From assembly GCA_002269645.1 (NCBI GenBank), contig NIVC01000221.1:1-64000 (forward strand): DNA of 64,000 bases, read 5' to 3'. The notes below the pieces were generated by a model. The model saw only the letters and a list, made by a program, of their open reading frames with translations, ran no database searches and was not told the DNA's origin. The position numbers and the translations under genes were made by a program. Of this stretch, positions 15,936 to 50,790 are shown piece by piece (position 1 is the stretch's first letter; each line of letters starts with the position of its first letter). The DNA is from Macrostomum lignano. Its lineage: Eukaryota.

Positions 15936-16522
15936 GATACTTGTGCGCTTGGGTTCTGCGCTGTCGCTGTTGCCGACTTTGTCGCTTGGACTGATTTCGA
16001 CGAGATCGCAAGCGGTGGTGCTTTGTCGCTCGAAACCGTTTTACCAACTCCTTTAGTTGGCGATGCTGGCGTACTTCCAGGCATTTTCGTAGCCTATGCT
16101 TGCGACGCCACTGTTGTGCTTTTGGCTTTTAGCCTTTAGCAATTGTCAGTCTAGCGGTCTGTTGACCTCTGACGCGTCTATTATTTATTCCATAACTCAA
16201 TAGCATGGTTCAATTCATCAACGCAGTCGCGTAACAAAAATGTCTATGGCAAAGCCATCAACCCACAACAACATCTAAAAACCTTCAACTGTCACTTGTT
16301 ATCTGATTTAAGACACGAATGTGTTTACTTATTAAAAACTGATGCTTGCTTGAATGGGATTTTGAGCGTGTTGTGACACTTTTACCGGCAAAACTGAACT
16401 TAAAATATTTGTATTTAATCTTTGACTGTTTATGGCAAGTCTAACTGAACGTCTTAACTCAGCACCTGGACCGCCTGTAACAAGCCAGTTCTGGAAATCA
16501 TTAATAAAATTTGTAGTTTTAA

Positions 16523-16640
16523 GACTACGTATCGTGCAGATTGTTGTCGATTTTTAGACAGATTTGACGCAAAAAAACGCAAATTATACTACTATTTGAA
16601 AATGAAGTAAGTAGTATATGAAAACGCTATCCTAAGCGTG
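16523..16640 (+). repeat. Left TIR (looser TGTACA/ATTAATCCC-rich subterminal similarity to ~17000)
   Basis: GACTACGTATCGTGCAGATTGTTGTCGATTTTTAG...AGTAAGTAGTATATGAAAACGCTATCCTAAGCGTGA matches the right end. Confidence 0.92.
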
Positions 16641-17376
16641 AAATATGTATACATAGCATATTTCTATATGTACTTGCATATGTACATTAATCCATGTACT
16701 GCATTAATCCCTATCTATCTCAAATGGATATGTACATTAATCCCATGTACATTAATCCCTATCTATCCCAAATTGTACATGTTCTATCCCCAATTCTATA
16801 TGTACGCAGTACATACTTCTACATTAATCTACATGTACAGTGTCTTCCCCAGACGGCCGGCGCGCTCTGTATGAATCACCAAGATTACATGTACAACTCG
16901 AAACCCTACTACATGTACAGTTGTGCGCAGAGGTGAGAATTGGTGTACAATCTCATCTAAATGAGTCAACTAATTGTACAGCTCACATCGTATATAAACT
17001 ATTTACAAAGAAGATATATTTACAATAAATCAGTAGCATATTACAGGAAAAATTTTATGTACATTACCAGCAAATAGAATAAACGGAAAATTTTACATTG
17101 TTTTTCAATATTTTTCTCTTCATAAATGATTTTAAGCAGGTCTGACACGCAAAATATGAACAATAGATTTTTACATTGGCAATTTCACCGCATACAATAC
17201 AAAAATACTTTATGCACATGAATTATGTACAACAAATAGATTCACGCTGATAAATTTGGCAATAGTACGAGCTACAATGCAAAAATGCTTTATGTACATT
17301 GATATGCAAATTATGTACAACAAATAGATTTTACTAATTTTATAATGCAAAATGTACATTGAATTGTCAGTCAGCA

Positions 17377-20300
17377 TTATTTATAGCCATAAGGCCTGCT
17401 GCAGGCCCCGTACACGCGTTTCGTCAGCACGCGCTGAAACGTCTTGTCCATACTGATCGTGTGTATGGTACAAGACGCCTTGTCGCGCCTGAACTGAAAC
17501 TGCGGCAGCTGCAGAGAGCCGCCGTGTAGCAGGGTGTTGCGCAAGTCATCGCTACGCTCCCGTATCTCCGGAGTCAGGCGGATGCCCTTGCATTTCAGGA
17601 CTTGGCTGCGGACACCGGCCGCATCCTCGACAATGTAAGTGTAGAGCTTGGGCCCCCCACTTACAAAGTCGGTCATCCGGCTGCCTGCGGGCACCTCATC
17701 GGTCCACATTCCGAGGCTCGTGCCATGGGGCGGCTCCCATTGGCCCTCGGAATGCCGGTAAACGACCCTGTGTGGGGGAGAGAAAAACGAGATAATTAGT
17801 TCCACATGCTAACTATTCAATTCTAAAAGAATTTTTCCAATGCAATACTTACGAGTCAGTGTCGCAGTAAATGGCCCGTTCGCCGAGCCCCTCCAATGCC
17901 TCGTACAGGCGCAGCCGGGCCTGCGTGGTCGTAAAGACTCCGATTGGCACATTGGAGTACCTGAATGGCCGCTGATTAAAGTAACGGTGCCGGTACTCTA
18001 GCAGCATAAACTCGCTGCCAATCGGTTCGCAGGCCTTGACTTTGAGGTTGGGGTCGGTCAGCCGGGCGAGCCAGTCCTCGTAGCTGGACACAATCTCGGT
18101 CGATGTCAGGTTGTCACGCTGACAAAATTTGCCCCAGAGCCTGTGTAGTGAAAAGAAAAGCTACTGTTAGTAGAAGAAAATCATTTAAAAAACAAAATTT
18201 ATGAATACTTACGAATTCAAAAAGATTTTCGCTACAAAGCGAAGTCCTGGGTTGGGTTCGACCTTGTCCAGCGTGACGCCCTCCTTGGCGAAGAAATCGG
18301 CAATATAGGCCGCCTTATCTTCATCCGACATGCCGGGGGAGCCGCTCGATTCGGCCTTCAGCTTCAGGAAGGCATTCACGTAATCACCGAACAGACCGGT
18401 CCGCTTCTCTGTCCAGTAGGCTAGCGCGTGAACAGCCTGCAGACGGTAGCCCAACTGGAAGGCCTTTTGCAGCTCCGGCGTTGCCCAGGTGCCAGTCAGC
18501 GCCCGTTCCTCGTCTGAGTGGTCGCAGCACTCGCCACCGCACTGCTGCTCCATACAGGTGCGGCAAAGCCCAAAAAAGAGCTTCTTTTGCACCCTGTACG
18601 GCAGCAGCGGAATATGCAAATCCGACGGCGGTAGCACAGTCACTTTGGCAATGCCAATTAAAGTAGCTGGCCAGCGCGTCAGAGTTGAGCGTCTGCGGCG
18701 TCTGATGCTGCACCGGGTGGCCAATCGGGTATGGGTCTTTCGACTGCACCGTCGGGTACAGAGAGACCTGCAAGTTGAAATAAAGCATTATTTTTCATAA
18801 ACTGTATTTTTACAAAATATTCTACTATATCAGTAGTATCACTACTCACCACATCCCGATATTTGAGCGTCTCAGTCTCGCTGGCCACAGCATGCGGGAT
18901 AAAACACTCTACGCGGCCGCCATAGAGCGCATCCTCCATCTTGAGTGGAGCGCGCAGATGGGCAGTTGCGGCGATAAAATCGGTCTGCGGTGCCAATACA
19001 GCGTCGTATTCGTGCTCCCAAATGACTCGAACACTGTAATTATCGAGTGCAACTCGCGAGTGAACCACTCGGTTTCGTGGCGAATGTGGCTCAGAGGCTG
19101 CCGTTTGAGCGGGTGGACGACATCCTGATCGGGCATGCACTGCTCCCAGCCATGGTAGAAACAACCAAGAAACTGCAAAACAGTGTTGCTAGCCTCATCA
19201 AAGCCGTCCACCTTGCGGCCGAGAATGACCGCCTCGCCGCCAGTCGAGTCGCAGGTGCGCAGCCGCCCGCCAAATTCGGTGGCATTCAAATAGGCCAGCC
19301 ACTTGCGCGCCTTGAATGACTGCTGGTCGGCCTGCCGGGCAATCACGCCGACCGAGTTGGGCTCCATGAATTTAGTAGTAAATACGGCCATTGCCAAACT
19401 GGCAATCGTATTGGCCTGAACAAACGGTTCCAGGCCGTCGCAAATGTCGCCAATTATTGCCCTGTACTTGATGCAGCCCTCGCGAAGCAGAACTGTGTCA
19501 CTCAAACAATAATCGAGATACTCCCGATTAAAGTTGAACAACTCGCCCTGTCGCGAGGCCAGCCAAGCACAGATGGAGTCGTAGTCATTGTTTGCTTTGC
19601 CGCCATAATATTCAATAGCCGGGTAGGGGCCCACGTAGTTCCAATTAGCCGGCTTGTTAAACTCGTGGGGAAAGGTCCCCTTGGCCAGCTTTGTGTCAGC
19701 GAGCCCCAGCGCTTTGGGGAATTGCGCAAGCGGGATTGGTATAAATTTTAACGAATCTTTAAATACCAATTTATCCACCGTCATGCTCATTAGCCGGCTG
19801 CCCTGGAACAGTACTTGGGGCCGCTTCTTGGCCAGGCCGTTGAGCAGAGCGCCAAGCAGTAGAAACGCATCATAGCCTGATGCATTGTGCGCGACAACAA
19901 TGGCGCCGCCTCGGAATGTGGTGCTCAGCCAGGCGAAAAACGCATTCAGCGAGGCCGGGCCCACAGCCACAAAATCGGCCATTTGGCAGGCGCAGTCTGA
20001 GTGGCTGACGCAATTGGAGAATTCCTCCCCCAGATCGCGGCCAGTCAGACAATTGGCGGCGCTATGCAGGCCATTGCAGAGGCGGCAAGTCTCGCGCGGA
20101 AACGCCCGGCCGGAGCAGGTCTCGCAGCACGTGACGGCAGTCACCAGATGCACGTGATGCTGCTTCTCCTCGTCCGTGTACGTTTCCGTATCGTAGAACA
20201 CGTACGGCATAGTCGAAGCTTTCACTTTGGGAGCCTTGACGAAACACAAATGTGAGCCGGCCTCGTCGTACTGTTTACACAGTGGGCACTTGACATGCCC

Positions 20301-21422
20301 GCACTTGTGCTCCGGCTCCTTCTGGCCCGCTTTCATCTCCTCCAAATATCCGCATTTGGAGCAGACGCGTATGGAGCTGCAGCGAGACCTGCCGGCTCGG
20401 TTTTTTGGCGGTGATTGTTAAAGCACTGCTGATTGTAGCACTTGAGGCCACAATCAGCGCAGCGCTTATAGTCACACCGCAGGCTCTTGCAATTGGAGCC
20501 GGGCACTTTACACTGAGGGCAGGTGTTGGCGCACTTGTGTTCTCCAGACACGCAGTCGTACGGCTGCTGGCAGCTTTCACAATAGCGGCGAGCACCGAAA
20601 AATGGCGGTACCTTGCACACCGCGTTAAAGTGTTCGCCAATTAGGTGCAGATTCAGCACCGTGTTGCCGGGCAGGGCATACACACACGTGTTGCCTTCCT
20701 CAGCACTGTACACACGAACGCCGAAATCCCGGCCGGGTGACTGAGCGTTCATGGCGGCGAGCAGTTGAGGGAGCACGTCAACCCAGAAAGGCCCGGCCTG
20801 TGCAATGGTTGATAAAGACTAAAACATTTGTATATTAATAAAAATGCAAATTAAAATGTGCAAGAACATTTTTACTCACCGAATACGGATTGGCAGCAAT
20901 CTGAAGCTCCCCAGTCAGCTTCGTCTGCAGTGAGGAGTCGGCTTTGATAGTCCGCCAAGCCCGCTTAGTGATGGCCTTGGCCTGCAGATCGGCGTATGCC
21001 TTGGCGACAATCAGCGCCCGGATAAGGCACCGCTTGTCGCGGTTGGCAATGACAACGTAATTATAGCCCATTGAATGGCGTGCCTGGATGTGGCGCTCCG
21101 CCGCATCTAGGCTGCCGCAGCCGCCCCGCGGGACCCAGGCCTTGAGTAAAAACAATTTAAAGTTGTTGCCCAAGACACTGGAGTCCGACTGCAGAACCTT
21201 GTTGATATGTTTAAATATCAACTCTGCAGTGAAGCGGGCGGCGCGGACCGGCGGGACATTGATGGCGAGCATCATATTGTCCGCTGTCAGCTTAGATGCG
21301 ACGAAGTCATCTGCATTCAGGTCGCTGCAAAGCACAGAAATTATATTCTCAAATGTTGAGCGAATATCGCTCAAATTTGTGAATACTATCTCGTATTCGA
21401 CCCCTTTTGCCTTAAAGGGCAT
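17377..21422 (-). CDS. pPolB: Protein-primed family B DNA polymerase, Polinton type, multi-exon (21422-20880, 20797-18850, 18767-18213, 18140-17853, 17767-17377); ~1240 aa after correcting three 1-nt indels
   Basis: Exo motifs FYDTET, HNASGYD, FKDSLKF and YCLSD; polymerase motifs DVV|SLYP, KIFLNS|LWGKF, YCDTDS|VVY and GPKLY; C-terminal KRVY..SRPYGY. All four introns are GT-AG and phase-matched (82, 82, 72, 85 nt). Frame breaks at ~20403, ~19044 and ~18658. Confidence 0.92.
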
Positions 21423-22163: not shown

Positions 22164-22323
22164 CTAGCTGTCGCCCCCTCTTTGCGGCCGGAGGCTGATG
22201 CTGATGCTGCTGCTGCTGTGGTTGCTGCTGCTGCTGCTGTGGTTGCTGCTGCTGCCTGGATGGGCCGGCATGCCCCCACAAGGCTGAAATAGCCGCTTCC
22301 GCGGCAGAGCGCTTCGATGCCAT
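22164..22323 (-). other. Putative Gln-rich first coding exon upstream of pPolB (MASKRSAAEAA...QQQQ...PAAKRGRQL|gtgagt)
   Basis: First ATG downstream of a TATATAAA box (22542-22549), ending at a strong donor CTAG|gtgagt (phase 1). The downstream acceptor is not certain. Confidence 0.4.
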
Positions 22324-22541
22324 TTCGATGGGGAAGGTAGATGGTTGTTGATGCTGCTGGTGATGTTGTTGAGGCAGTTGGCGCTGCTGTTGTTGCTTTT
22401 GTTGCTGCTGCTGCTGTGCTGATGCTGCTGCTGTGTTGCCGCTGTTGCAGGCTGATGCTGTTGAAGCAGTTGATGCTGCTGTTGTGGCTTCTGCTGCTGC
22501 TGGCTGCTTTTGCTGATGCGGCTGCAGCAGCTCTCACCCGC

Positions 22542-22549
22542 TTTATATA
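22542..22549 (-). promoter_or_regulatory. Putative TATA box for the pPolB-side transcript
   Basis: TATATAAAGCGGGTG on the minus strand, followed by a CAG-rich ATG-free leader. Confidence 0.45.
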
Positions 22550-23761
22550 CCCCGCGAGAGGGAGGATGGGGTAGGGGCACGAGAAGTGTGCGTGATTTTC
22601 TTCCCGGGTCTATATTTTCTAGATTAGTGTACGATTGTACACTCGGTTCCGCATTTGATATAGAAAGTTGGGGGTCAAAAATACCCCGCCAATTCCTTTT
22701 CCATGCGGTATTTTATTGGATCTGAGCGGAGCCAGCCAACCGGCACTCTCGCAGGAGTGAAATTGCGACTTCGCCAGAGTACAGTCTCTCAAAGAAGAAG
22801 ACCGCTTCCTCTTGCAGCATGTCTTTTCGACTCGAATCGGATAGAAAACGGTGTTTATCCAGAAAATAATTGGCAGAAGCTGACCAATAATAGCTAAATA
22901 CAGATGAAAATATGAAAGACAATTTCTGTAGTTATTCAAGGCCTGTCGGTCTCTGTTTACGAAAATGGTTGTCAAAAATCGCTGTATCAATTTAATAACC
23001 CGGGGGGAAACGGAGTTTGTGTGCAAAGCATCTGATTGACAGAGGCTCGGGGAAGAGTAATAGTCGATGAAAAGCTCTTGCCATCTTCTAAAATATCCAC
23101 AAAGAGTAATAAAGGTGACGGAGATCCCCTGTCGCAAGCCAAAACAGAGAGACGGAGTTTTCTACTTCTGTTTACGTAATGTTTGGGGATGCTTCCCTGT
23201 CACCTGGGGTTATAGGGACAGAGAGTCAGTTATGGCATTTACGCGGTAGTAAAGAATTGCCTTGGTGAGGCTGGGGTAGGTGTTGTTCTCTCCATATTTG
23301 CGACATTATTAGTCTCCTGGGTTGAATTTGGAATATGGCTAGAATGTATTGTGGGGAATCGTTGAATTGAAGGGTGATTCAAAATGTAGTGTGTGCAACA
23401 ACACAGATTCAGTGCATCTAAAAGAGGCTGTTGGGAGCTTCAGAACTGAGAATAACGTTTAAAATAGCATCAATGGCATGATTTAGTAATCGATACTGAA
23501 ATCATTCAGTATAATAGCAGACTGTGTTTTTAGCGCCAACTAGCAATCTACGCCCCCCGTTGGGGAGCCAAAGATATGCTATACACGTTTTTTTAATAAG
23601 CAACATGTATCCTTGAAATCTTAAAAAATCTCCTGTCAAACCTTGTAAGCCTTGACATGTCAGTAATTCCCCCCCCCAGCTTTAACATATCAACTTCCCC
23701 CCTTGACATCTCAGCAATGCCCCCAATAAGCCTTGGAAATCTAAAAATATCTGTCAACCTT

Positions 23762-23805
23762 CTAACCCTAACCCTAACCCTAACCCTAACCCTAACCTAA
23801 CCCTA
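23762..23805 (-). repeat. Interstitial (TTAGGG)n tract in H1
   Basis: About 7 TAACCC units on the plus strand. Confidence 0.9.
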
Positions 23806-24574
23806 AAGCATTGAAATTTCAGTAATTCTCTCTAAGAGTCATTATAGCACTACTACAGCATTCGTAGCGATAAGCTTCTTTTATTTTTTACATAACGCTT
23901 TTTTATCAGCGATCCCTCGCCTGAGGAGGCATCAAATAATGTAATAAAAAGTTTTCAATAAACTACATGTAGCTTCTGACTTTAGCCTTGAAATCTCATT
24001 TATACCCCCGTGAGCCTTGACATCTCAGCTATTCCCCCCCGTCCGTAAGCCTTGACATGTCAGCGATGGCCCCCATAAACCTTGAAATCGAAATAATCCA
24101 CTGTTAACCTTGAAACCCGATAAAATATAACCCTCAACCCACACCTGACCTAAACCTAACTTTAACCCAACCTAAAGCCTTGAAATCTCAGCAATTCTTC
24201 TCCCCTAAGCCTTGACATTTTAGTGATTCCTTCTTTAAGAATCAAGCACTATAACGATTTCCACCAAGCTTTGACATCGTAGCAATTCCCAAATTAATCT
24301 TTTAACTTCGACATGACTTTTCTTTTATGTATACGTAGTGCTACTTTTATTTTTTACATGACTCTGCTACATGACCCTGTGGCGAGCCAACAAAGAATGC
24401 AATAAAAAATTGAGTAAAGTACATGAACTTTGAAGTAGCTTCTGACTTTTGCTTTGAGATCCCAGAAACAACCCCCCCCCCCTCGTAATCTCAGTTATTC
24501 TCTGAGAGCCTTTACGTCTCAGTTTTTCTTCCCAGCACAGCATTATAGCTGCATTTCATTTTTACATGACATCC

Positions 24575-27500
24575 TTCATGTCTGACATGACGCTTCTTTT
24601 GATTTTTACATTACACTTCTTTTATTCTTCCATGATGCTTCTTAATTTTTTAAATGATGCTTTAATTAGTTTTTAAATGAGGCTTCTATGATTTTTTCAT
24701 GACGCTTCTATGATTGTTTACATGACGCTTCTATGCTTTTTACATGACGCTTCTATGCTTTTTACATGACGCTTCTATGATTATTTCATGACGCTTCGAT
24801 GATTGTTTACATGACGCTTCTATGATTGTTTACATGATGCTTCTACGATTTCTGCAGGATGCTTCCATGATTTTTACATGATGCTTCTATGATTTTTTCA
24901 TGACGCTCCTATGATTTTTTTATGACGCTTCTATGATTGTTTACATGACGCTTCTATGCTTTTTACATGACGCTTACATGCTTTTTACATGACGCTTCCA
25001 TGATTTTTTACATGACACTTCTATGATTTTTACATGATGCTTCCATGATTTTTTCATGACGCTTCTGTGATTGTTTATATGACGCTTCTATGCTTTTTAT
25101 ATGACGCTTCCATGATTTTTTACATGACACTTCTATGATTTATACATGACGCTTCCATGATTTTTTCATGACGCTTCTGTGATTGTTTATATGACGCTTC
25201 TATGCTTTTTATATGACGCTTCTATGATTGTTTACATGACGCTTCTATGCTTTTTATATGACGATTCTATGATTGTTTACATGACGCTTCTATGATTTTT
25301 ACATGACGTTTCTATGATTTTTTCATGACGCTCCTATGTTTTTTTCATGACGCTTCTACGATTTTTTCATGATGCTTCTATGATTTTTACATGACGCTAC
25401 TATGATTTTTACATGACGCTTCCATGATTTTTTACATGACGCTTCTATGATTATTTCATGACGCTTCTATGATTATTTCATGACGCTTCTACGATATCTG
25501 CAGGACGCTTCTATGATTGTTTACATGACGCTTCTATGATTTTTACATGACGCTTCTATGATTTTTTCATGACGCTCCTATGTTTTTTTCATGACGCTTC
25601 TATGATTTTTTCATGACGCTTCTATGATTTTTTACATGACGCTACTATGATTTTTACATGACGCTTCCATGATTTTTTACATGACGCTTCTATGACTTTT
25701 TACATGACGTTTCCATGATTTTTTACATGACACTTCTATGATTTTTACATGACGCTTCCATGATTTTTTTTCATGACGCTTCCATGATTTTTTACATGAC
25801 GCTTCCATGATTTTTTCATGACGCTTCTATGATTTTTACATGACGCTTCCATGATTTTTTACATGGCACTTCTATGATTTTTTGCATGACGCTTCTATGA
25901 TTGTTTACATGACGCTTCTATGATTTTTTACATGACGCTTCTATGATTGTTTACATGACACTTCTATGATTTTTTACATGACGCTTCTATGATTGTTTAC
26001 ATGACGCTTCTATGATTTTTTACATGACGCTTCTATGATATTTTCATGACGCTTCTATGATTGTTTACATGACGCTTCTATGCTTTTTACATGACGCTTC
26101 TATGCTTTTTACATGACGCTTCTATGATATTTTCATGACGCTTCCACAATTTTTTACATGACGCTTCTATGATTGTTTACATGACGCTTCTATGATTTTT
26201 ACATGATGCTTCTACGATTTCTGCAGGACGCTTCTATGATTTTTACAAGATGCTTCTATGATTTTTTCATGACGCTCCTATGATTTTTTCATGACGCTTC
26301 CATGATTTTTTACATGACGCTTCTATGATTTTTTACATGACGCTTCTATGATTTTTTACATGACGCTTCTATGATATTTTCATGACGCTTCTATGATTGT
26401 TTACATGACGCTTCTATGCTTTTTACATAACGCTTCTATGCTTTTTACATGACGCTTCTATGATATTTTCATGACGCTTCCACAATTTTTTACATGACGC
26501 TTCTATGATATTTTCATGACGCTTTCACAATTTTTTACATGACGCTTCTATGATTGTTTACATGACGCTTCTATGATTTTTACATGATGCTTCTACGATT
26601 TCTGCAGGACGCTTCTATGATTTTTACATGATGCTTCTATGATTTTTTCATGACGCTCCTATGATTTTTTACATGACGCTTCTATGATTTTTTACATGAC
26701 GCTTCTATGATATTTTCATGACGCTTCTATGATTGTTTACATGACGCTTCTATGCTTTTTACATGACGCTTCTATGCTTTTTACATGACGCTTCTATGAT
26801 ATTTTCATGACGCTTCCACAATTTTTTACATGACGCTTCTATGATTATTTCATGACGCTTCTATGATTTTTTCATGACGCTTCTACGATATCTGCAGGAC
26901 GCTTCTATGATTGTTTACATGACGCTTCTATGATTTTTACATGACGCTTCTATGATTTTTTCATGACGCTTCTATGTTTTTTTCATGACGCTTCTATGAT
27001 TTTTTCATGACGCTTCTATGATTTTTTACATGACGCTACTATGATTTTTACATGACGCTTCCATGATTTTTTACATGACACTTCTATGATTTTTACATGA
27101 CGCTTCCATGATTTTTTTTCATGACGCTTCCATGATTTTTTACATGACGCTTCCATGATATTTTCATGACGCTTCCACAATTTTTTACATGACGCTTCTA
27201 TGATTGTTTACATGACGCTTCTATGATTTTTACATGATGCTTCTACGATTTCTGCAGGACGCTTCTATGATTTTTACATGATGCTTCTATGATTTTTTCA
27301 TGACGCTCCTATGATTTTTTACATGACGCTTCTATGATTTTTTACATGACGCTTCTATGATATTTTCATGACGCTTCTATGATTGTTTACATGACGCTTC
27401 TATGCTTTTTACATGACGCTTCTATGCTTTTTACATGACGCTTCTATGATATTTTCATGACGCTTCCACAATTTTTTACATGACGCTTCTATGATTATTT

Positions 27501-28195
27501 CATGACGCTTCTATGATTTTTTCATGACGCTTCTACGATATCTGCAGGACGCTTCTATGATTGTTTACATGACGCTTCTATGATTTTTACATGACGCTTC
27601 TATGATTTTTTCATGACGCTTCTATGTTTTTTTCATGACGCTTCTATGATTTTTTCATGACGCTTCTATGATTTTTTACATGACGCTACTATGATTTTTA
27701 CATGACGCTTCCATGATTTTTTACATGACGCTTCTATGATTTTTTACATGACGCTTCCATGATTTTTTACATGACACTTCTATGATTTTTACATGACGCT
27801 TCCATGATTTTTTTTCATGACGCTTCCATGATTTTTTACATGACGCTTCCATGATTTTTTCATGACGCTTCTATGATTTTTACATGACGCTTCCATGATT
27901 TTTTACATGGCACTTCTATGATTTTTGCATGACGCTTCTATGATTGTTTACATGACGCTTCTATGATTTTTTACATGACGCTTCTATGATTGTTTACATG
28001 ACACTTCTATGATTTTTTACATGACGCTTCTATGATTGTTTACATGACGCTTCTATGCTTTTTACATGACGCTTCTATGCTTTTTACATGACGCTTCTAT
28101 GATATTTTCATGACGCTTTCACAATTTTTTACATGACGCTTCTATGATTTTTTACATGACGCTTCTATGATTTTTTACATGACGCTTCTATAATT
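24575..28195. repeat. 22-23-bp satellite A (CATGACGCTTCTATGATTKTTTA)n
   Basis: Continuous tandem array with a ~650-bp higher-order block duplication. Confidence 0.97.
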
Positions 28196-28882
28196 TTTTA
28201 GTTTTTTTTTTGTGTTAAAAGGCTTTAATTAAAAAAATTCCACTCTCTAAAAATTCGAACCATCGTCCCTGCATTTAGCAGTCAGTCTGTTTAAATCAAG
28301 TCTGGTGTTTCGCTTCCACACTGCATTTTCAATACTGTGACGCAATTCAAGTCGGAGTTACAATTCAGTTATGATGCAATCTATTTTAGAATCAGAATTC
28401 AACCAGTCAATTTTTTTCTAGCATTCTTACAATGCATTTCAAGTCGAAAAGTTTGCTTGACCTTTGCAAAAAAGCATGTTTTTCGAGTATTTAATGCCTT
28501 TAGCATCGAGCAATTTCTTAGCCAAGACACATGTACCGTCACGGGAAAATTTCTGATCGAACAGTGCAAGTCTCATGAAAATCGGTTAAGCCATTTTTTC
28601 TCTAATCGATTACAAGCAAGCAAGCAAGCAAGATTTTCATTTTTAGTATATAGGACTAGCAATCTACGCCTCCCGTTGGGGAGCCAAAGAAATGCAATAC
28701 ACGTTTTTTTTAATAAGCTACATATATATCCTTGAAATCTTAAAAAATCTCCTGTCAAACCTTGTAAGCCTTGACATGTCAATAATTCCCCCCCCACAAG
28801 CTTTAACATATCAACTTCCCCCCTTGACATCTCAGCAATGCCCCCAATAAGCCTTGGAAATCTAAAAATATCTGTCAACCTT

Positions 28883-28943
28883 CTAACTCTAACCCTAGCC
28901 GAACCCTAACCCTAACCCTAACCCTAACCCTAACCTAACCCTA
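28883..28943 (-). repeat. Interstitial (TTAGGG)n tract in H2
   Basis: TAACCC units at the position homologous to 23762-23805. Confidence 0.9.
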
Positions 28944-33255: not shown

Positions 33256-33339
33256 CCAGACAATAAGTAGCTAGTGCGACAGTTTCCTTAGCATTATAGT
33301 GGCTCCTTTAAAATTCGCTCTCTTTTACGTTTGAAATTG

Positions 33340-39245: not shown

Positions 39246-39842
39246 CTTCTTTGATGTTTAGCAGTTTTGTTGTGTTTTTAAGGTGTTTTAATAAAAAAAA
39301 TCTTTTTGTACTACTAAGATTCGAACCCAGGTTGCTACATTAGCATTCCAGTCTGTTCGCATCAGGGCTATCTCTTTTCAATTGGAGAACATGAATTGTG
39401 GCCCTTATAATTCAATTCTTACAGCAAGTCAATTGGGGTAAAAAGTTATGACATAATCAATTTCTCAGTCAGCCAGTATCAGTCTCAATTCAAGTTAGCA
39501 ATATGGTTACGCAATTTAAATCAAGTCGTGAGTGCATTTCTTCGGCACTGTTTTCAACTTGTTGTGATGCAATCTTTATCACAATCGGAATTCAGTCAGT
39601 CAGTTTTTTCTCTAGCATTCTTACAATGCATTTCAAGTCGAAAATTTGGCTTGACCTTTGCAAAAAAGCATGTTTTTCGAATATTTAGTCCCTTTAACAT
39701 TGAGCAATTTTTTAGCCAAGATGCATGTACCGTGCCAGGAAAATTTCTGATCGAATGGTGCAAGTTTGAAGAAAATCGGTTGAGCCAATTTTTCTGAAAT
39801 CTATCGCATAGCTACAGACATTTCATTTTTAGTATATGGGAA

Positions 39843-42800
39843 CTAGCAATCTTCGCCCCCCGATGGGGGACATCTGGATAGAATCCTTGTTCTTTACAAA
39901 TAACAAATAGACAGCGAAATAAAACCTTCAAAAAACAACAACAGACATTCCCTCTAAAAACAAAACATCCCAAGACAGCAAGCATCCTCAGACAGCATTC
40001 AAGCATCGATCCCCAAATAGCAAGCATCCCCCAGACTGCAAGCATCCCCCAGGTAGCAAGCATCCCCCAGGTAGCAAGCATCCCCCAGGTAGCAAGCATC
40101 CCCCAGTTCGCAAGCATCCCCCAGATTGCAAGCATCCCCCAGTTCGCAAGCATCCCCCAGATTGCAAGCATCCCCAGTTCGCAAGCAACCCCTGATAGCA
40201 AGCATAACCTGGATACAAAGATACCTTATAGATATCTAGCAACCCCCTCTCAGATAGCAAGTACCCTCCACCCACAAGAGCAAGCATCCCCCTGTAAGCA
40301 AGTATCCATCCTTAAAAAGCAAGCATCCACCAGAGAACAAGTAGCTAGTGCAACAATTTCCTTAGCTTTATAATGGTTCCATTTTGTTTGGCATGACACT
40401 TCTTTTATGTTTGAAATGGGGTCTCTTTTTTGTTTAAAAAGGTGGCTCTTTAATGTTTGACATGGTAGCTCTTCTATGTTTGACATGGTAGCTCTTTTGT
40501 GTTTGACATGATAGCTCTTTAATGTTTGACATGGTGGCTCTTCTATGTTTGACATGGTAGCTCCTTTGTGTTTGACATGATAGCTCTTTAATGTTTGATA
40601 TGGTGGCTCTTTAATGTTTGACATTGAGTCACGTATATGTTTCACATGATGGCTCTTTCATGTTTGACATGATGGCTCTTTAATGTTTGACAAGGTGGCT
40701 CTTTAATGTTCGCCATGGTGGCTCTTTAATGTTTGACATGGTGGCCCTTTAATGTTTGACATGGTGGCTCTTTAATGTTTGACATGGTGGCTCTTTTATG
40801 TTTGACATGGAGGCTCTGTTATGTTTGACATGGAGTCACGTATACGTTTGACATAGTGTCTCTTCTATGTTTTACATGGTAGCTATTCTGTGTTTGACAT
40901 GATGGCTCTTTAATGTTTGACATGGTGGCTCTTTAATGTTTGACATGGAGTCCCGTATATTTTTGACATAATGGCACCTTTATGTTTGACATGGTGGCTC
41001 TTTTATATTTGGCATGGTGGCTCTTTTATGTTCGACATGGTGGCTGTTTTTTGTTCTACATGGTGGCTCTTTTATGTTCGACATGGTGGCACTTTTATGT
41101 TTGACATGGAGTCACGTATACGTTTGACATAGTGTCTCTTCAATGTTTGACATGGTGGCTATTTTGTGTTTCACATGATAGCTCTTTAATGTTTGACATG
41201 GTAGCTCTTTAATGTTCGCTATGGTGGCTTTTTAATGTTTGACATGGTGGCTCTTTTATGTTTGACATGGTGGCTCTTTACTGTGTGAAATAGTGGCTCT
41301 TTAATGTTCTACATGGTAACTCTTTTATGTTTGATACGATGGCTTTTTAATGTCTGACATGGTGGCTCTTTTATGTTTGACATGGTGGCTCTTTTATGTT
41401 TGACATGGTGGCTCTTTTATGTTTGACATGGTGGCTCTTTTATGTTTGATACGGTGGCTTTTTAATGTCTGACATGGTGGCTCTTTTATGTTTGACATGG
41501 AGGCTCTTCTATGTTTAACATGGTGGCTCTTTTATGTTTGACAAAGTGGCTATTTAATATTCTACATGGTGGCTGTTTTTTGTTCTACATGGTAACTCTT
41601 TTATGTTCGACATGGTGGCTGTTTTTTGTTCTACATGGTAACTCTTTAATGTTTGACACGGTGGCTCTTTAATGTTCGACAAAGTGGCTATTTAATATTC
41701 TACATGGTGGCTGTTTTTTGTTCTACATGGTAACTCTTTTATGTTCGACATGGTGGCTGTTTTTTGTTCTACATGGTAACTCTTTTATGTTTGATACGGT
41801 GGCTGTTTAATGTTCAACAAAGTGGCTATTTGATGTTTGATATGGTGACTCCTAAATGTTTTACATGGTGGCTCTTCTATGTTTGACATGGTGGCTCTTT
41901 TATGTTTGACACGGCGGCTCTCTAATGTTTGACAAAGTAGCTATTTAATGTTCGAAATGGTGGCTCTTTAAAGTTTGACATAAAGTCACATATATGTTTG
42001 ATATGGTGACTCCTAAATGTTTTACATGGTGGCTCTTCTATGTTTGACATGGTGGCTCTTAAATGTTTGACATGGTGGCTCTTAAATGTTTGACATGGTG
42101 GCTCTTAAATGTTTGACATAATGGCTCTTAAATGTTTTACATGGTGGCTCTTAAATGTTTGACATAATGGCTCTTAAATGTTTGACATGGTGGCTCTTAA
42201 ATGTTTGACATAATGGCTCTTAAATGTTTGACATGGTGTCTCTTAAATGTTTGACATGGTGGCTCTTAAATGTTTGACATGGTGGCTCTTAAATGTTTGA
42301 CATGGTGGCTCTTAAATGTTTGACATGGTGGCTCTTAAATGTTTGACATGGTGGCTCTTAAATGTTTGACATAATGGCTCTTAAATGTTTGACATGGTGG
42401 CTCTTAAATGTTTGACATAATGGCTCTTAAATGTTTGACATGGTGGCTCTTAAATGTTAGACGTGGTGGCTTGTTTAGGTTTGACATAGTGGCTCTTCTA
42501 TGTTTGAAATGGTGGCTTTTTAATCGTTGACATGGAGTCACGTATATGTTTGACATAGTGCTTATTTTATGTTTGACATGGTAACTCTTTTATATTCGAA
42601 ATGTTGGCTCTTTAATGTTCGAAATGGTGGCTCTTCTATGTTTGACATTGCGCTTCTATTATGTTTAGCAGTTTTGTTGTGTTTTTAAGGTGTTTTGATA
42701 AAAAAAATCTTTTTGCACTACTAAGATTCGAACCCAGGTCGCTACATTAGCATTCCAGTCTGTTCGCATCTTGGCTATCTCTTTTCAATTGGAGAACATG

Positions 42801-43257
42801 AATTGTGGCCCTTATAATTCAATTCTTACAGCAAGTCAATTGAAGTAAAAAGTAATGACATAATCAATTTCTCAGTCAGCCAGTATCAGTCTCAATTTAA
42901 GTTAGCAATATTGGTTACGCAATTTAAATCAAGTCGTGTGTGCATTTCTTCGGCACTTTTTTCAATTTGTTGTGATGCAATCTTTATCAGAATTGAAATT
43001 CAGCCAGTCAGTTTTTTCTCTAGCATTCTTACAATGAATTTTAGGTCGAAAGAGCTGCTTGACCTTTGCAAAAAAGCATGTTTTTCGAATATTTAATCCC
43101 TTTAATATTGAGCAATTTTTTAGCCAAGATGCATGTACCGTCCCAGGAAAATTTCTGATCGAATGGTGCAAGTTTGAAGAAAATCGGTTGAGCCATTTTT
43201 TCTGAAATCTATCGAATAGCTACCCACATACAGACAACTCATTTTTAGTATATAGGA
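39843..43257 (-). mobile_element. Non-autonomous Helitron H4 (subfamily B); satellite B at ~40400-42655
   Basis: CTAG + CCCCCATCGGGGGG hairpin at the low end and TCCTATATAC at 43257. One extra base at the H3/H4 junction (39842). Confidence 0.85.
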
Positions 43258-46200
43258 CTAGCAATCTTCGCCCCCCGATGGGGGACATCTGGATAGAATC
43301 TCTGTTCTCTACAAGTAACAAAAAAACAGCTAAAAATCCTTCAAAAAGACAACAGACAAACTGCTCAAATGAAGTGCATTGCAAAAAGAAATCATCCCAA
43401 GACCGCAAGCATCCCCCAGATAGCAAGCATCCCCAAGATAGCAAGCATCCCCCAGATAGCAAGCATCCCCCAGATAGCAAGCATCCCCCGGATAGCAAGC
43501 ATCCCCCAGAAAGCAAGCATCCCCCAGATAGCAAGCATCCCTCAGATAGCAAGCATCCCCCAGATAGCAAGCATCCCCAGATAGCAAGCATCCCCCAGAT
43601 AGCAAGCATCCCTCAGATAGCAAGCATCCCCCAGATAGCAAGCATCCCCAAGATAGCAAGCATCCCTAGATAGCAAGCATCCCCCAGATAGCAGGCATCC
43701 CCAGATAGCAAGCATCCCCCAGATAGCAGGCATCCCCCAGATAGCAAGCATCCCCCAGATAGCAAGCATCCCCCAGATAGCAAGCATCCCCAAGATAGCA
43801 AGCATCCCCAAGATAGATAGCATCCCCAAATAGTAAGCATCCACCAGATAATAAGTAGCTAGTGCGACAATTTCCTTAGCATTATGGCGGCTCCTTTAAA
43901 ATTCGCTTACTTTTACGTTTGAAATTGTGTATCTTTTATGTTTAACAAGGTGGCTCTTTTATGTTATACATTGTGGCTCTTTTATGTTATACATTGTGGC
44001 TCTTTTTTGTTCTACGCTCGTACATGGTAACTCTTTTATGTTTGATACGGTGGCTTTTCAATGTCTGACATGGTGGCTCTTCTATGTTTGACATGGGGGC
44101 TCCTCTTTGTTTGACATGGGGCTCTTCTATGTTTGACATGGGAGCTCTTCTATGTTTGACAAAGTGGCTTTTTAATGTTTGACATGGTGGCTCTATTATG
44201 TTTGACATGGTGGCTCTATTATGTTTGACATGGTGGCTCTTTAATGTTCAAAAAGGTGGCTCTTTTATGTTTGACATGGTGGCTCTTTAATGTTTGACAT
44301 GGTGGCTCTTTAATGTTTGACATGGTGGCTCTTTACTTTTTGACATGGTGGCTCTTTAATGTTGGACATGGTGGCTTTTTAATGTTAGACATGGTGGCTC
44401 TTTAATGTTCGACATAAAGTCACTTATATGTTTGACATGGTGGCTCTTTAATGTTTGACATGGTAGCTCTTTTATGTTCGACATGGTGGCTCTTTTATGT
44501 TCGAAATGGTGTCGCTTCAATGTTTGACATGGAGTTACGTATATGTTTTACATGGTGGCTCTTTTATGTTCGACATGGTGGCTCTTTAATGTTTGACATG
44601 GGGTCTCTTCAATGTTTGACATGGAGTTACGTATATGTTTGACATGGTGGCTCTTTAATGTTTTACATGGTGGCACTTTCATGTTTGACCTGGAGGCTCT
44701 TTAATATTTGACATGGTGGCTCTTTTATGTTTGACATGGTGGCTCTTTTATCTTTGACATGGTGGCTCTGTAATGTTCGACATGGAGTCATGTATATGTT
44801 TCACATGGTAGCTCTTAAATGTTCGACATGGTGGCTCTTTAATGTTCAACATGGAGTCATGTATATGTTTGACATGGTGGCTCTTAAATGTTCGACATAG
44901 TGGCTCTATAATGTTTGATATGGTGGCTCTTCAATGTTTGACATGGTGGCTCTTTAATGATCGACATGGCGTCATGTATATGTTTGACATGGTAGCTCTT
45001 GAATGTTCAACATGGAGTCATGTATATGTTTTACATGGTGGCTCTTAAATGTTCGACATGGTGGCTCTTTAATGTTTGACATAGTGTCTCTTTAATGTTT
45101 GACATGGAGTCATGTATATGTTTGCCATGGTGGCTCTTTAATGTTAGACATGGTGGCTCTTTTATGTTTTGCATGGTGGCTCTTTTATGTTCGACATGGT
45201 GTCTCTTCAATGTTTGACATGGCGTCATGTAAATGTTTTACATGGATGCTCTTGTATTTTTAACATGTTGACTCTTTAATGTTCGAAATGGTGGCTCTTA
45301 ATTGCCTAACATGGAGTCACGTATATGTTTGACATGGAGTCATGCATATGCCTGATATGGTAGCTCTTTAATGTTTTACATGGAGTCACGTATATGTTTC
45401 ACATGTTGGCTATTTTATGTTTGACATGGTGGTTTTTAAATGTTCGACATGGTGGCTCTTTAATGTTTTACATGGTGGCACTTTCATGTTTGACCTGGTG
45501 GCTCTTTAATGTTTGACATGGTGGCTCTTTAATATTTGACATGGTGGCCCTTTTATGTTCGACATGGTGGCTCTTCAATGTTTGACATGGAGTCATGTAT
45601 ATGTTTGACCTGGTGGCTCTTTAATGTTTGACATGGTGGCTCTTTAATGTTTTACATGGTGGCACTTTCATGTTTGACCTGGTGGCTCTTTAATGTTCGA
45701 CATGGTCGCTCTTTAATGTTCGACATGGTGGCCCTTTAATGTTCGACATGGTGTCGCTTCAATGTTTGACATGAAGTTACGTATATGTTTTACATGGTGG
45801 CTCTTTTATGTTCGACATGGCGTCATGTATATGTTTGACATGGTAGCTCTTGAATGTTCAACATGGAGTCATGTATATGTTTGACATGGTAGCTCTTGAA
45901 TGTTCAACATGGAGTCATGTATATGTTTGACATGGTGGCTCTTAAATGTTCGACATGGTGTCTCTTTAATGTTTGACATGGAGTCATGTATATGTTTGAC
46001 ATGGTAGCTCTTGAGTGTTCGACATAGAGTCATGTATATGTTTGCCATGGTGGCTCTTTAATGTTAGACATGGTGGCTCTTTTATGTTTTGCATGGTGGC
46101 TCTTTTATGTTCGACATGGTGTCTCTTCAATGTTTGACATGGAGTCATGTATATGTTTGACATGGTGGCTCTTGTATTTTTAACATGTTGGCTCTTTAAT

Positions 46201-47733
46201 GTTCGACATGGTGGCTCTTTAATGTCTAACATGGAGTCATGTATATGTTTGACATGGAGTCATGTATATGTCTGATATGGTAGCTCTTTAATGTTTTACA
46301 TGGAGTCACGTATATGTTTCACATGGTGGCTATTTTATGTTTGACTTGGTGGTTCTTAAATGTTCGACATGGTGGCTCTTTAATGTGTTACATGGTGGCA
46401 CTTTCATGTTTGACCTGGTGGCTCTTTAATGTTTTACATATAGTGTCTCTTTAATGTTTGACATGGAGTCATGTATATGTTTGACATGGTAGCTCTTGAA
46501 TGTTCGACATAGAGTCATGTATATGTTTGCCATGGTGGCTCTTTAATGTTAGACATGGTGGCACTTTCATGTTTGACCTGGTGGCTCTTTAATGTTTGAC
46601 ATGGTGGCTCTTTAATATTTGACATGGTGGCCCTTTAATATTTGACATGGTGGCCCTTTAATGTTCGACATGGTGGCTCTTCAATGTTCGACATGGAGTC
46701 ATGTATATGTTTGACCTGGTTGCTCTTTAATGTTTGACATTGTGGCTCTTTAATGTTCGACATGGTGGCTCTTTTAGGTTTGAAATGGTGGCTCTTAAAT
46801 GTTTGACATGGTGGCTTTTTAATGTTCGACATGGTGGCTCTTTTATGTTCGACATGGCGTCATGTATATGTTTCACATGGTAGCTCTTGAATGTTCAACA
46901 TGGAGTCATGTATATGTTGGACATGGTGGCTCTTTAATGTTCGACATGGTGGATCTTTAATGGTCGACATGGTGGCTCTTTAATGTTCGACATGGTAGCT
47001 CTTTAATGTTCGACATGGTGTCTCTTTAATGGTCGACATGGTGGCTCTTTAATGGTCGACATGGTGGCTCTTTAATGTTTGACATGGTGGCTCTTTAATG
47101 TTTGACATGGTGGCTCTTTAATGTTTGACATTGTGCTTTTTTGTGTTTAGCATTTTGTGTTTTTAAGGTTTTTGAATAAAAAAATCTTTTTGCACTACTA
47201 AGATTCGAACCCAGATCGCTGCATTAGCAGTCCAGTCTGTTCGCATCTATGCTATCTCTTTTCAATTGGAGATCATGAATTGTGGCCCTTATAATTAAAT
47301 TCTTATAGCAAATCGGTTAGAGTAAAAAGTTATGACATAATCAATTTCTCAGTCAGCCAGTATCAGTGTCAATTCAAGTTAGCAATATTGTTACGCAATT
47401 TAAATCAAGTTTTGTGTGCATTTGTTCGGCACTGTTTTCAACTGGTTGTGATGTAATCTTTATCACAATTGGAATTCAGTCAGTCAGTTTTTTCTCTAGC
47501 ATTCTTACAATGCATTTCAGGTCGAAAGAGCTGCTTGACCTTTGCAAAAAAGCATGTTTTTCGAATATTTAATCCCTTTAATATTGAGCAATTTCTTAGC
47601 CAAGATGCATGTACCGTCCCAGGAAAATTTCTGATCGAATGGTGCAAGTTTGAAGAAAATCGGTTGAGCCATTTTTTCTGAAATCTATCGCATAGCTACC
47701 CACATACAGACAACTCATTTTTAGTATATAGGA
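43258..47733 (-). mobile_element. Non-autonomous Helitron H5 (subfamily B); satellite B at ~43930-47135
   Basis: CTAG at 43258 abuts the TC of H4. 5' TCCTATATAC at 47733 is preceded by A on the minus strand. Confidence 0.85.
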
Positions 47734-47839
47734 TTTTTAGTATATTGGATTTCATTTTTAGTATATGGGAGGATTTTACTGTGTCTATAGAATACTTCCC
47801 CAGCTTCGTCTTGGGCAATATACATGCCTATTTGAATGA

Positions 47840-48840
47840 TGAAGCAGCATTTGTGATGATTAAGTTGTAAAAATTATGGTTTCTGCTGATGAAGTGATTA
47901 ATTTTGTTTAATAAAGTCCGCATTTTAAAGTTAAAAAGAGTAAAAACTGTGAAAATTGACCTTTTTGAAACGAAAATGTGCAATTTCTAGTAATTTAGCT
48001 TTCAATGAAAATGTCTTGGGTGGAATTCCAACTTGGGCAGGGGTGTGCATATGGAGATCAGTGTGTGACTCATTCCTGCTCGAAAGCTGTCTCTTGCCAA
48101 CTTTGAAATCAGCATTTGGACAAATTAGCGGTTGAAATTATGGCCTTTGGGATGAAACTACTAAGTTTGATCAATTCGCATTTCGCATTTTAACGTTAGA
48201 AAATAATAAAACTGTGAAAATTGGCTTTTATTAAACGAAAGAATGAGAAATTCTATGAATTAGCTTTAAAAAAACCATGGCTTTAGTGGAAATTGGACTG
48301 GCTCGGGTAATCCGTGTGCGATTATAATTCCTGCTCAAAGCTGTCTCAGAGTGGCCAGAAGTAGCATTTGTGATAATTTTGTGTTAAAATTGTGTTTTTT
48401 AGTGATGAATTACTGATTTTGATCAATAAAGTATGCATTTTAACGTAAAAAATGCGTAAAAACTGTGAAAATTTGTATTTTCTTATGAAAAAATGCTCAT
48501 TTCTAGCTATGTCTTTGGTTGATTCTGGGCTGGCTTGTTGATGTTTGTGTGGGATTCATTCTTGCTTCAAATCTGTCTAATTAGGTCAAGTTGAAAACGA
48601 CATTTGGACAAATTAGCTGTTGAAAGTATCGTTTCTAGTGATGAAACTACTGCTTTTGGTCAATAAAGTCTACATTTTAACGTTAAAATCGTTAAAAACT
48701 GTGAAAAATTGTATTTTTCTTATGAAAAAATGCGCATTTCTAGTCATTTAACTTTCAAAATAACCAAATTTCTTCTTTGAAATTCCAACTTGACTTTGTA
48801 TATGGAGAGGTCAGTGCATGATTCATTCCTGCTTCGAACA
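47840..48840. repeat. Four diverged ~240-270-bp tandem units
   Basis: TTTTAAMGTTA...AAAACTGTGAAAATT recurs at ~47925, ~48190, ~48440 and ~48675, and GCATTTGG/TG recurs at similar spacing. Confidence 0.7.
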
Positions 48841-50059
48841 GATTAAACCATCTCAGGACCAAGTCTGAAAGCTTGAAGTAAATAAGGGCAGGAGAGGCGT
48901 GGCGGAGAGGTAGAATTGCATACTTCTAGTATAACGCAAGGGTAAGAGACACTATGCAAATGTGTTAGAATCAAGTATATCAGAATTGCATTGCGGTGGA
49001 GACACTGATTCATAGATTGTGTACATTGACAAAAGCAGGGTATTATGTCAATGCAGGTAGAGGTTGGTGGACACGGATTTGCGGTGTTCATATGTGCATT
49101 AACAGTTAGTTTCTTGCTAACTGGGGGCGGCATGGATGACGTAATCGGAGAAGAGGGTTTTGCTGAATAATGTTTAATATAGGGTCTGTGCTGTGGATAG
49201 ATCTGTCTGTACACTGAAAGTGGGCGGAATTCCTTGACAGTTAGTAATAGGGAGGTCGGAGAACAGGGACGAGTGGTTCTATTCGATTTGCTATATGGGC
49301 CTGCACTGTGAAGACGAATCTGTTGACCATTGGAGGGTGGCTGTTTTTGAACAGTCTTGGGGTTGATTTTGAATATGGGCAGAGTTGAAGTGTGATTCAA
49401 CATGTACAGGCCCAAACTCTATATGATTTGTACAGGCTTGATTTAATCTCTTGATTTGTACAGGCCCAAACTCAATATAAAGGCAATGTATTATAGGTTA
49501 TTGTACAATTTCAAGTGTAAGGAAATATGTCTCAGAGAGAGAAATCGCGTGCCGTGCATCCATGATTCTTACTTTTAGAGGTCGATATGCATAGTGATTC
49601 CAATATATATAGGTTGTAACACAGAAAATAGTATACAATGGAGATTTAGTATATTTGGATGTATCGTTTTTGTAAATATTCCGCGCATGCAACGGATTGT
49701 ACAGCTGTCGCGCGCGCACCGACCCACCTCTGCATATACTGCGCTGTACACGTAACAATTAGTGTTTCGAGTTGGAATTGTACATATAATCTTGGGGGGT
49801 TGGCGATTCAAATACGCAGAGCAGGGGCTGTCGTGTAAGATTGGGGATTAATGTATACACTGTACATATAGAAATTGTCATAGAAGTAGATTAATGCGCA
49901 AGTGTACATATAGAAGTATGCACTGTACAAGTTGACAATGCACATGTAGAATTGGGATAGACATAGAAGTAGACATGTACATATACAATTTGAGATAGAT
50001 AGGGATTAATGCAGTACATGGGATTAATGTACATATACGACTACATATTGCCATGTATA

Positions 50060-50177
50060 TCACGCTTAGGATAGCGTTTTCATATACTACTTACTTCATT
50101 TTCAAATAGTAGTATAATTTGCGTCTTTTGCGTCAAATCTGCCTAAAAATCGACAACAATCTGCACGATACGTAGTT
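50060..50177 (-). repeat. Right TIR of the 33.7-kb element
   Basis: Reverse complement of 16523-16640 with few mismatches, followed by TTAA. Confidence 0.92.
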
Positions 50178-50790
50178 TTAAGTCACTTTCTGACGACATC
50201 TTTGTAACGCAGGCATATCTACAAAAATATAATTTAGATACAGTTTAGACTACTTTTCTCGGTAGAAAAATGGAAAAAGTGGTGCTGAAATTTATTCGAG
50301 AACAGTTTAATCAGAAATAGGGACAATAAATTCTTTTGTATTCAGTAGACTATAAAAATCTGATGCCAGTAGTCTGATGCGATTCTTGTTTACTGCCTTT
50401 AATGGCGTTCAGGTTCTAGCTTTTTCTGTTCATATGGCTTTTGTTCTGAAACCACACGCATGCCATTAATTAATTGTGCTGTTAACATAGGAGTATGCTT
50501 GATTGCTGCCATGGATCCTCTAATTCAGCACTGTTTACCAAGCCTCTCGGGCACCCAGTAATTGATTTCTTGATTGGGGAATTGCATCACTATGGCAACG
50601 AATCCCAGAGCCTTTCCCATTCCAATGGATCACGGATCCAGATGGGAACAAAGCATTGTCAATAATAGAACCAAATATCAGCAGAAAGCTTCTATTGGCC
50701 ATCCATGTCCAATTAACGACATTGCTTTGGAAGATAAAAGCGTGAGCGTGAGAACCCAAAAAGCGCTTTAACACTTTTCCTTCAGGAAAA

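Follow-up and report, generated by a model that had tools for sequence, protein, structure and literature searches.

The closest described systems to the element reported here are the Polintons, or Mavericks, which combine the polymerase pPolB with long terminal inverted repeats (TIRs), a 6-bp target-site duplication and a short repeated motif at the ends, given as (AGT)2, (AG)3 or (AC)3A for vertebrates, to which that list is limited (PMC8097293). A retrovirus-like integrase encoded in cis is part of the Polinton definition (PMC5499653), and large surveys have retained a polymerase only where an integrase was linked to it (bioRxiv 2023.08.22.554363), so that a lineage with the polymerase alone would be invisible to them. 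Several reduced or altered forms have been described: nine Polintons in which capsid, protease and ATPase were lost together (PMC4028283), derivatives in Pieris that lack polB and are incomplete yet mobile, which points to help in trans (bioRxiv 2025.02.07.637071), and the eukaryotic cytoplasmic linear plasmids of the pGKL type, which are polinton-derived via loss of the virion module with pPolB kept (PMC11161782, which also cites a hairpin derivative that arose by deletion from the kalilo plasmid). Dinoflagellate eupolintoviral elements carry introner insertions in Polinton-like proviruses (PMC12166617), and one source notes Polinton insertions in flatworms but gives no details (bioRxiv 2025.04.19.649669).

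The window, i.e., the whole stretch of 64,000 nucleotides of Macrostomum lignano DNA that was analysed, contains an element of 33,653 bp that extends from 16524 to 50176 and has the termini 5′-ACTAC..GTAGT (Table 1). An earlier note on this DNA had drawn the element with GA..TT termini between TTAA duplications. At that boundary, the fifth base differs between the two sides (TTAAG versus TTAAA) and agreement is found only from ACTAC on; in ten other end pairs the common sequence likewise begins at ACTAC with differing flanks, and ACTAC is the terminus common to all copies. The first 32 nt of the true window ends are identical to each other. Other parts of the description were borne out: the TIRs lie 33.6 kb apart with an identity of 96% over 127 nt (~89% over 200 nt), and the subterminal arms are rich in TGTACA and ATTAATCCC, the two arms holding 26 of the 39 TGTACA in the window and 6 of the 6 ATTAATCCC.

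Searching the genome with an 18-nt end motif gave 179 matches for a family A, with ACTACG ends, and 226 for a family B, with ACTACT ends (still a short repeat in both), and none for reversed controls. The first 100 matches of each family, about half of the copies, were sized. Among these listed matches there were 31 (A) and 38 (B) inward end pairs, of which 10 and 19, respectively, bracket pPolB (29 in total); few of the pairs without pPolB (21 A and 19 B) were read. Most of the pPolB-bracketing pairs (25/29) measure 8.7–10.4 kb, and the four longer ones, i.e., the window, C271, C200 and C694, all hold nested elements, which is a full Polinton in C271 and was established for C200 and C694 in the 10 kb examined of each. 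TIR length ranges from ~200 to 1400 bp in 11 pPolB copies.

Kolobok elements are characterized by a TTAA-specific 4-bp duplication, RR..YY ends and a DDD/E transposase (PMC9587614), and TIRs are the sole tested likeness to them, whereas A and B make a 6-bp duplication without sequence specificity and have AC..GT termini. General Pfam profiles, with none specific to Kolobok, found no DDD/E transposase in the same-ended elements that were read. In piggyBac the ends are CCC, and neither these nor a TTAA duplication occurs in A/B. An exact 6-bp duplication of varied sequence was present in 26/26 ACTAC-ended elements scored (19 of family A and 7 of family B) when each end was moved to the closest ACTAC, at most 8 nt away, and a 6-bp match was preferred given a choice; these represent 24 independent sites, with window/C1486 and C4430/C3085 as duplicate loci, and in two of the 26 (C1300 and C986) the length is ambiguous because they lie in simple repeats. 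TTAA lies inside the duplication at only one of the 24 sites, the window locus (the window and its allele C1486), where the duplicated sequence is TTTAAG and not TTAA as had been proposed. The empty allele with a single TTAA that had been envisaged is replaced by an empty paralogous site on C462 (G000:C462), at which the flanks are joined across the single hexamer TTCAAG, without TTAA. A 6-bp duplication of varied sequence is the signature of Polintons, not of Kolobok or piggyBac. Since the duplication is non-specific and the termini are ACTAC..GTAGT, a composite in which a TTAA-specific shell of Kolobok or piggyBac type had captured pPolB is refuted; what spoke for it was the TTAA near both ends at the window locus alone. 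The further suggestion of two unrelated short elements is contradicted by the allele C1486 (98.5–99% identical to the window), which links the same ends at 18.2 kb, and by the 29 inward pairs that bracket pPolB. Taken together, these two explanations retain a negligible probability, and the proposed TTAA composite transposon does not exist.

Table 1. Features of the element and its target site in the window.
Feature	Position	Strand	Basis
Target-site duplication, left copy, TTTAAG	16518..16523	.	direct repeat and empty site
TIR, pPolB 3′ side, begins 5′-ACTACGTA	16524..16740	+	end comparison
Arm, subterminal, rich in TGTACA/ATTAATCCC	16640..17379	.	motif positions
pPolB last coding exon	17380..17766	-	
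Intron 5, GT-AG, 85 nt, directly after the YCDTDS motif	17767..17851	-	splice gap in RNA-like runs
pPolB exon with the YCDTDS motif at its end	17852..18139	-	
Intron 4, GT-AG, within the KIFLN-SLWGK motif; position common to A and B	18140..18214	-	
pPolB palm exon (PF03175); frame change in window copy near 18660	18215..18764	-	
Intron 3, GT-AG, within the RDV-VSLYP motif; position common to A and B	18765..18849	-	
Large pPolB exon: Cys-rich region, exonuclease (PF03175), VSR-like insert	18850..20797	-	
Intron 2, GT-AG; same site in other A and B copies	20798..20879	-	read from sequence
N-terminal pPolB exon (putatively terminal-protein/vOTU-like)	20880..21415	-	
161-bp unit, single in window, ~59 tandem copies in allele C1486	21420..21598	.	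comparison with C1486
Candidate first exon: MASKRS.., Gln-rich, basic end, GT donor (putative splicing)	22164..22323	-	
TATA-like box, 226 nt upstream of candidate first ATG	22541..22549	-	
Nested, non-coding array of Helitron type (from its ends); at least 6 unit ends; internal tandem repeats of 18 and 22/23 bp	23540..47773	-	ends and empty junction
Degenerate repeats, ~250 bp, non-coding arm	47842..48838	.	sequence
TIR, pPolB 5′ side, + strand end GTAGT-3′	49960..50176	-	end comparison
Target-site duplication, right copy, TTTAAG	50177..50182	.	direct repeat with left copy

The window copy is interrupted by a nested array of 24,234 bp that has no ORF >170 aa. Neither the allelic copy C1486 nor any of the four other copies tested at the junction contains the array; its removal leaves 9,419 bp of element, in agreement with the ~9.4 kb estimated earlier. 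Helitrons begin with 5′-TC and end with CTRR-3′, with a hairpin near the 3′ end, and insert between A and T. Read on the minus strand, the array runs 5′-TC..CTAG-3′ with a hairpin ahead of its 3′ end and lies between A and T, features of end and insertion by which it classifies as Helitron-type. The element is flanked by WSC-domain exons, and its insertion site is probably the intron between them. The window copy is defective, with a broken reading frame (in the large exon, frame changes occur near 20400 and 19040) and a missing early exon, the start of the N-terminal pPolB exon being gone together with the exon that precedes it. The terminal-protein and vOTU labels on this N-terminal exon are putative and based on motifs.

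As had been noted, the only recognisable gene of the element is pPolB, which matches PF03175. Profiles built from Polinton proteins of the same genome and their metagenome homologues were run against 9,154 six-frame pieces of at least 25 aa, taken from 24 delimited elements (16 with pPolB), 2 partial elements and 3 controls. The profiles for integrase, major capsid, minor capsid and ATPase found matches in 3/3 control Polintons and in 0/16 of the delimited pPolB copies; the only A/B integrase matches were two ORFs judged by eye to belong to nested LTR-type elements. Profiles for an adenain-like protease (from a single sequence) and TBP, run without a positive control, gave no A/B match, nor did any profile match 301 further pieces from family-B palindromes, or Pfam the 103 arm ORFs. 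The absence of the integrase is a family trait and not damage to the window copy. Apart from pPolB, a PC4-like gene was seen in all 7 delimited B copies and in the A copy C694, and some B copies have an additional ORF of no assigned family. The long ORFs of C126, C538, C2525, C200 and C694 were considered as element genes and rejected, as they belong to nested elements (partly by Pfam for C538, by eye for the others), and the 912-aa ORF in C1945 belongs to a nested reverse transcriptase/RNase H. Searches of the whole genome by family profile overlook true members: the one with PF04665 found no match with 150/375 candidates scored, a false negative since ATPases exist in this genome, and the one with PF21738 missed capsids that are present. 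The PF04665 null was therefore not used as evidence of absence. A and B very probably form a Polinton-derived, integrase-less group with 6-bp duplications, and they are best read as two sister families, an old, high-copy, polymerase-only offshoot of Polintons.

The pPolB gene has at least five introns, all GT-AG, and a candidate first exon, found in 9/9 family-A pPolB copies and 0/4 palindromic copies, would make a sixth. Introns 1–4 are unrelated in sequence between the two families and identical in position, the latter even though synonymous sites between A and B are near saturation (dS ~2.9). Intron 5 was placed in family A only, with a search pattern that did not fit family B. Introns 3–5 lie in or beside the three polymerase motifs. 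Splicing was followed in sequencing runs guessed to be RNA, in which uncovered parts were not counted as evidence: intron 5 is exactly skipped in contigs of 3/3 RNA-like runs from three studies but is not skipped in a fourth run, and, of the four introns covered, it alone was seen spliced, no joint for introns 2–4 being among the joints listed, to which 14 more add that lay beyond the listing. Some copies of the gene, at least, are thus transcribed, and their transcripts spliced.

The gene is also conserved by selection. The large exon is open in 12/16 copies, and among open copies dN/dS is 0.08–0.12 in family A (21 pairs, dS 0.07–0.28) and 0.04–0.22 in family B (10 pairs), values that come from non-independent pairs and that the choice of open copies biases downward. 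These data bear on the view that A and B are simply what deletions have left of a full Polinton, with the decay of each copy following its insertion. Such remnants exist, as 10 loci in C. elegans strains have pPolB and a TIR without integrase (bioRxiv 2024.01.15.575659), and the window copy is itself broken. Against this, many sites that differ in their duplications show one and the same reduced layout, the large exon is mostly open with dN/dS near 0.1, and both the integrase loss and the introns are common to the two sister families, which makes decay after insertion very improbable.

The best PDB match of the protein, by profile and by fold, is the phi29 polymerase, and the best BFVD match is an adintovirus PolB; a weak structure model (pLDDT 64.6, pTM 0.41), made from a database gene model, supports the polymerase class only. 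All named protein matches above 42% identity are labelled Macrostomum lignano, the best others reaching 34–42%, with one from Nematostella, and scans of viral contigs gave no confirmed relative. By these comparisons, the A/B type of pPolB appears to have no close relative outside Macrostomum lignano. In a quick tree, from which C234 and other in-genome polymerases were left out and 13/60 candidates were removed for short overlap, A and B group as a single clade (SH-aLRT 100); its stem is long, at 1.74 changes per column, and its placement is tentative. The metagenome relatives are mostly ordinary Polintons: 7/22 loci of at least 8 kb have integrase, capsid and ATPase together, 14/22 at least one of them, and in 8/22 none was detected, while the polymerase is in a single ORF of at least 900 aa in 39/80. 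The same genome also contains C234, a decayed Polinton that carries the A/B polymerase type. By likeness to its description, the A/B polymerase resembles the VSR-bearing pPolB2 of molluscs and a marine nematode (bioRxiv 2023.08.22.554363).

The VSR-like segment, a weak match (E 0.04), raises the idea that pPolB itself, for example through this insert, carries out both the staggered cutting and the end joining, so that the element is a self-sufficient one-gene transposon with no need for an integrase. The lineage has persisted for long without integrase and has an end motif of its own, as such a transposon would, and if true, this would be a new transposition mechanism in which pPolB also supports palindromic non-coding satellites. 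The same polymerase type, however, is found beside integrase, capsid and ATPase in the seven metagenome loci and in the decayed Polinton C234, so the insert predates the loss of the integrase, and the 6-bp duplication is the same as in integrase-bearing families. Self-insertion is accordingly improbable.

Full Polintons are present in the same genome as a possible source of integrase. At least four families have integrase (PF00665), capsid and ATPase, and the two integrase searches gave ~100 matches each, i.e., at least ~200 among the matches listed. In 4/4 integrase-bearing families the ends seen start with AGTAG, one of them being known from one end only. A 6-bp duplication flanks 3/4 of the full Polintons scored, C67 being without one, and a fifth insert of full type also has one. 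No TIR sequence past the first five-base pattern is shared between the AGTAG families and A or B, and the AGTAG and ACTAC ends have only A-S-T-A-S (S = G or C) in common. In the reading that we consider rather probable, A and B are an old Polinton lineage with the polymerase alone, which is copied by protein priming and relies for its insertion on the integrase of the AGTAG Polintons; this enzyme would act in trans and tolerate the related pattern A-S-T-A-S. One of the earlier suggestions, a pPolB-replicated element integrated in trans by a TTAA-specific transposase, survives here in its first two parts, replication by pPolB and insertion in trans; the TTAA enzyme is at odds with the 6-bp duplication.

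Alternatively, the integrase could come from an ACTAC-ended partner, such as a full-length master present in few copies, a second segment bearing these ends or an extrachromosomal form that was not assembled; segmentation of this kind is known from bidnaviruses. The A/B ends are unlike those of all integrase-bearing families seen, the PC4-like gene kept in some A/B copies could be a relic of a larger genome, many same-ended elements of 8–10 kb are without pPolB, and the end matches listed cover about half of the total, all of which would fit a partner. Among the matches listed, however, no native integrase carrier with ACTAC ends was found, and a Polinton integrase lies between A/B ends only in C106 and C271, by nesting in both. 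C106, the sole ACTAC-ended element with integrase and capsid, was considered as an autonomous helper or second segment and turned out to be an AGTAG Polinton that is flanked by a separate duplication, CTAGCA, has an internally deleted pPolB and lies inside a non-coding family-B shell. The pPolB-less copies examined were palindromes or hosts of nested retroelements. An ACTAC-ended partner is thus a tentative and rather unlikely source.

The proposed replication by protein priming may have left two kinds of traces. Positions 9–32 of the ends vary widely among copies, whereas within a copy the two ends almost never differ: over the first 32 nt, the mean number of mismatches in 17 family-A elements is 0.18 within an element versus 8.3 between elements. 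Family B is less homogenised, with means of 2.3 within (range 0–10, with two copies at 5 and 10 mismatches) and 9.6 between. Same-ended copies without intact pPolB are often near-perfect giant palindromes, with arms of 2.3–4.6 kb that are 99.5–99.9% identical (in C903, C362, C3637, C126 and C2525, 2.4–4.6 kb and 99.5–99.9%). C4430/C3085 is a palindrome with two inverted 3′ halves of pPolB, and 2/2 family-B centres sampled were palindromic. The palindrome arms overlap the non-coding arm of the pPolB copies only partly, and they are ~95–98% alike over most of their length, which indicates that the palindromes multiply as subfamilies. Strand-displacement replication of linear protein-primed DNA, as in adenoviruses and linear plasmids, gives rise to end pairing and copy-back products. 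In the proposed mechanism, an excised linear copy would be primed by the spliced pPolB at its ACT-repeat ends and replicated by strand displacement, and pairing of the two ends would keep them identical within a copy. Template switches could yield the giant palindromic copies, which would then spread as non-coding parasites. Insertion in trans by the retrovirus-like integrase of the full AGTAG-ended Polintons, the step of which we are least sure, might complete the cycle, and the window copy would later have lost its reading frame and gained the Helitron-type array.

To our knowledge, transposition of Polintons has not been shown in the laboratory. Macrostomum lignano is a laboratory model, and here the identical ends and near-perfect palindromes, as genomic traces of the proposed protein-primed intermediate, are present in high copy. 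The insertion step raises the question of whether a Polinton integrase can act on ends of other sequence.

Like Polintons, A and B have pPolB, long TIRs, a non-specific 6-bp duplication and a short repeated end motif. They differ in being without integrase, capsids and ATPase, in a size of ~9.5 kb versus ~17 kb, in having at least five pPolB introns versus none in intact vertebrate Mavericks, and in the ends ACTACG/ACTACT versus (AGT)2, (AG)3 or (AC)3A (PMC8097293 for the vertebrate elements). A and B are therefore Polinton-like in ends, duplication and polymerase, and they stand apart from Polintons in integrase, capsids, introns and end motif; with Polintons being defined by polymerase and integrase, the lineage falls outside. 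The pGKL-type plasmids are cytoplasmic and non-integrating, whereas A and B are chromosomal, spliced and flanked by duplications. In the capsid-less Polintons, no loss of the integrase is reported in the available text of PMC4028283, while in A and B the integrase is gone and the polymerase is under selection. The Pieris derivatives (bioRxiv 2025.02.07.637071) are without polB, and A and B are their mirror image, with everything except polB gone. The dinoflagellate elements keep integrase and capsids, their intactness being unclear according to the authors (PMC12166617), whereas the A/B introns are old, shared and located within a selected, spliced gene. In the open-access literature searched, no polymerase-only, intron-bearing and selected Polinton family was found, and a prior Repbase listing is possible. 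The lineage has the appearance of a virus that has completed the passage to a nuclear replicon: it has lost the virion genes and the integrase and acquired spliceosomal introns, with the polymerase still under selection. The genome also holds many intact intronless polymerases of another type.

The element probably lies in an intron of a gene encoding several WSC domains, since WSC-domain exons are found on either side of it (see the table for these and the surrounding repeats). A GIY-YIG nuclease fragment beyond its right end may be the remnant of a Penelope-type retroelement. The LTR-like repeat close to the left end is found genome-wide, where direct pairs about 4.2 kb apart are often seen.

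Genes, gene fragments and repeats in and around the element (window coordinates)
Feature	Position	Strand	Remark
AIG1/GIMAP GTPase genes	495-1202, 2689-3801, 6780-7847	-	three in tandem
WSC-domain exons	10967-11431, 13901-14611, 50752-51192, 55425-55841	+	flank the element on both sides; one also with PAN
LTR-like repeat	16119-16270		152 bp; genome-wide
(CTAACC)n	23762-23806, 28883-28944		short runs within the nested Helitron-type array
GIY-YIG nuclease fragment	53741-54130	-	
(CACCCAA)n array	58110-59179		~150 copies

Within the gene for the protein-primed polymerase (pPolB), three of the five introns (introns 3-5, window 17767-18849) lie within or adjoin the three catalytic polymerase motifs. 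The same VSR type of polymerase, at 29-41% identity, was found in a decayed full Polinton of this genome (G000:C234:57189-77958) that has integrase, capsids and ATPase; its ends were looked for and none were found. Eight metagenome loci of at least 8 kb with this polymerase type (L163, L165, L177, L194, L199, L210, L214 and L219) gave no integrase, capsid or ATPase match in a profile scan, and are probably incomplete contigs.

Further genes were noted in two full Polintons of the genome. The one nested in a family-B shell on contig C106 has a gene for a TBP-like protein (L137:3523-4083; PF00352, E 3e-21) adjoining that of the polymerase, together with genes for PC4 and a chromodomain-bearing integrase, and another, on G000:C2696, encodes a protein with an F5/8 type C domain (L112:6334-7698) that is possibly a receptor-binding protein. 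In the Polinton copies at G000:C106:360392-372511 and on C84, pPolB is reduced to its C-terminal 307 aa, the ORFs of their relatives being 1220-1313 aa long, and these copies were possibly mobilised in trans.

Elements are repeatedly nested in one another (G000:C1485:44228-62496, C271:276978-317519 and C106), either as a family-A element within an A palindrome or as full Polintons within family-B elements. Many non-coding palindromic copies are about 9 kb long, as are the coding copies (A and B end pairs among the matches listed), and a size constraint, such as a hypothetical packaging in trans, is a possible explanation. At G000:C362:496180-525281, three same-ended units stand in tandem, and the host sequence flanking the array on the left recurs in the later ones, which reflects either a duplication or an assembly artefact. 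A 161-bp unit present once in the window has about 59 copies in the allelic element on G000:C1486, and its head-to-tail joint was found in RNA-like and other contigs.
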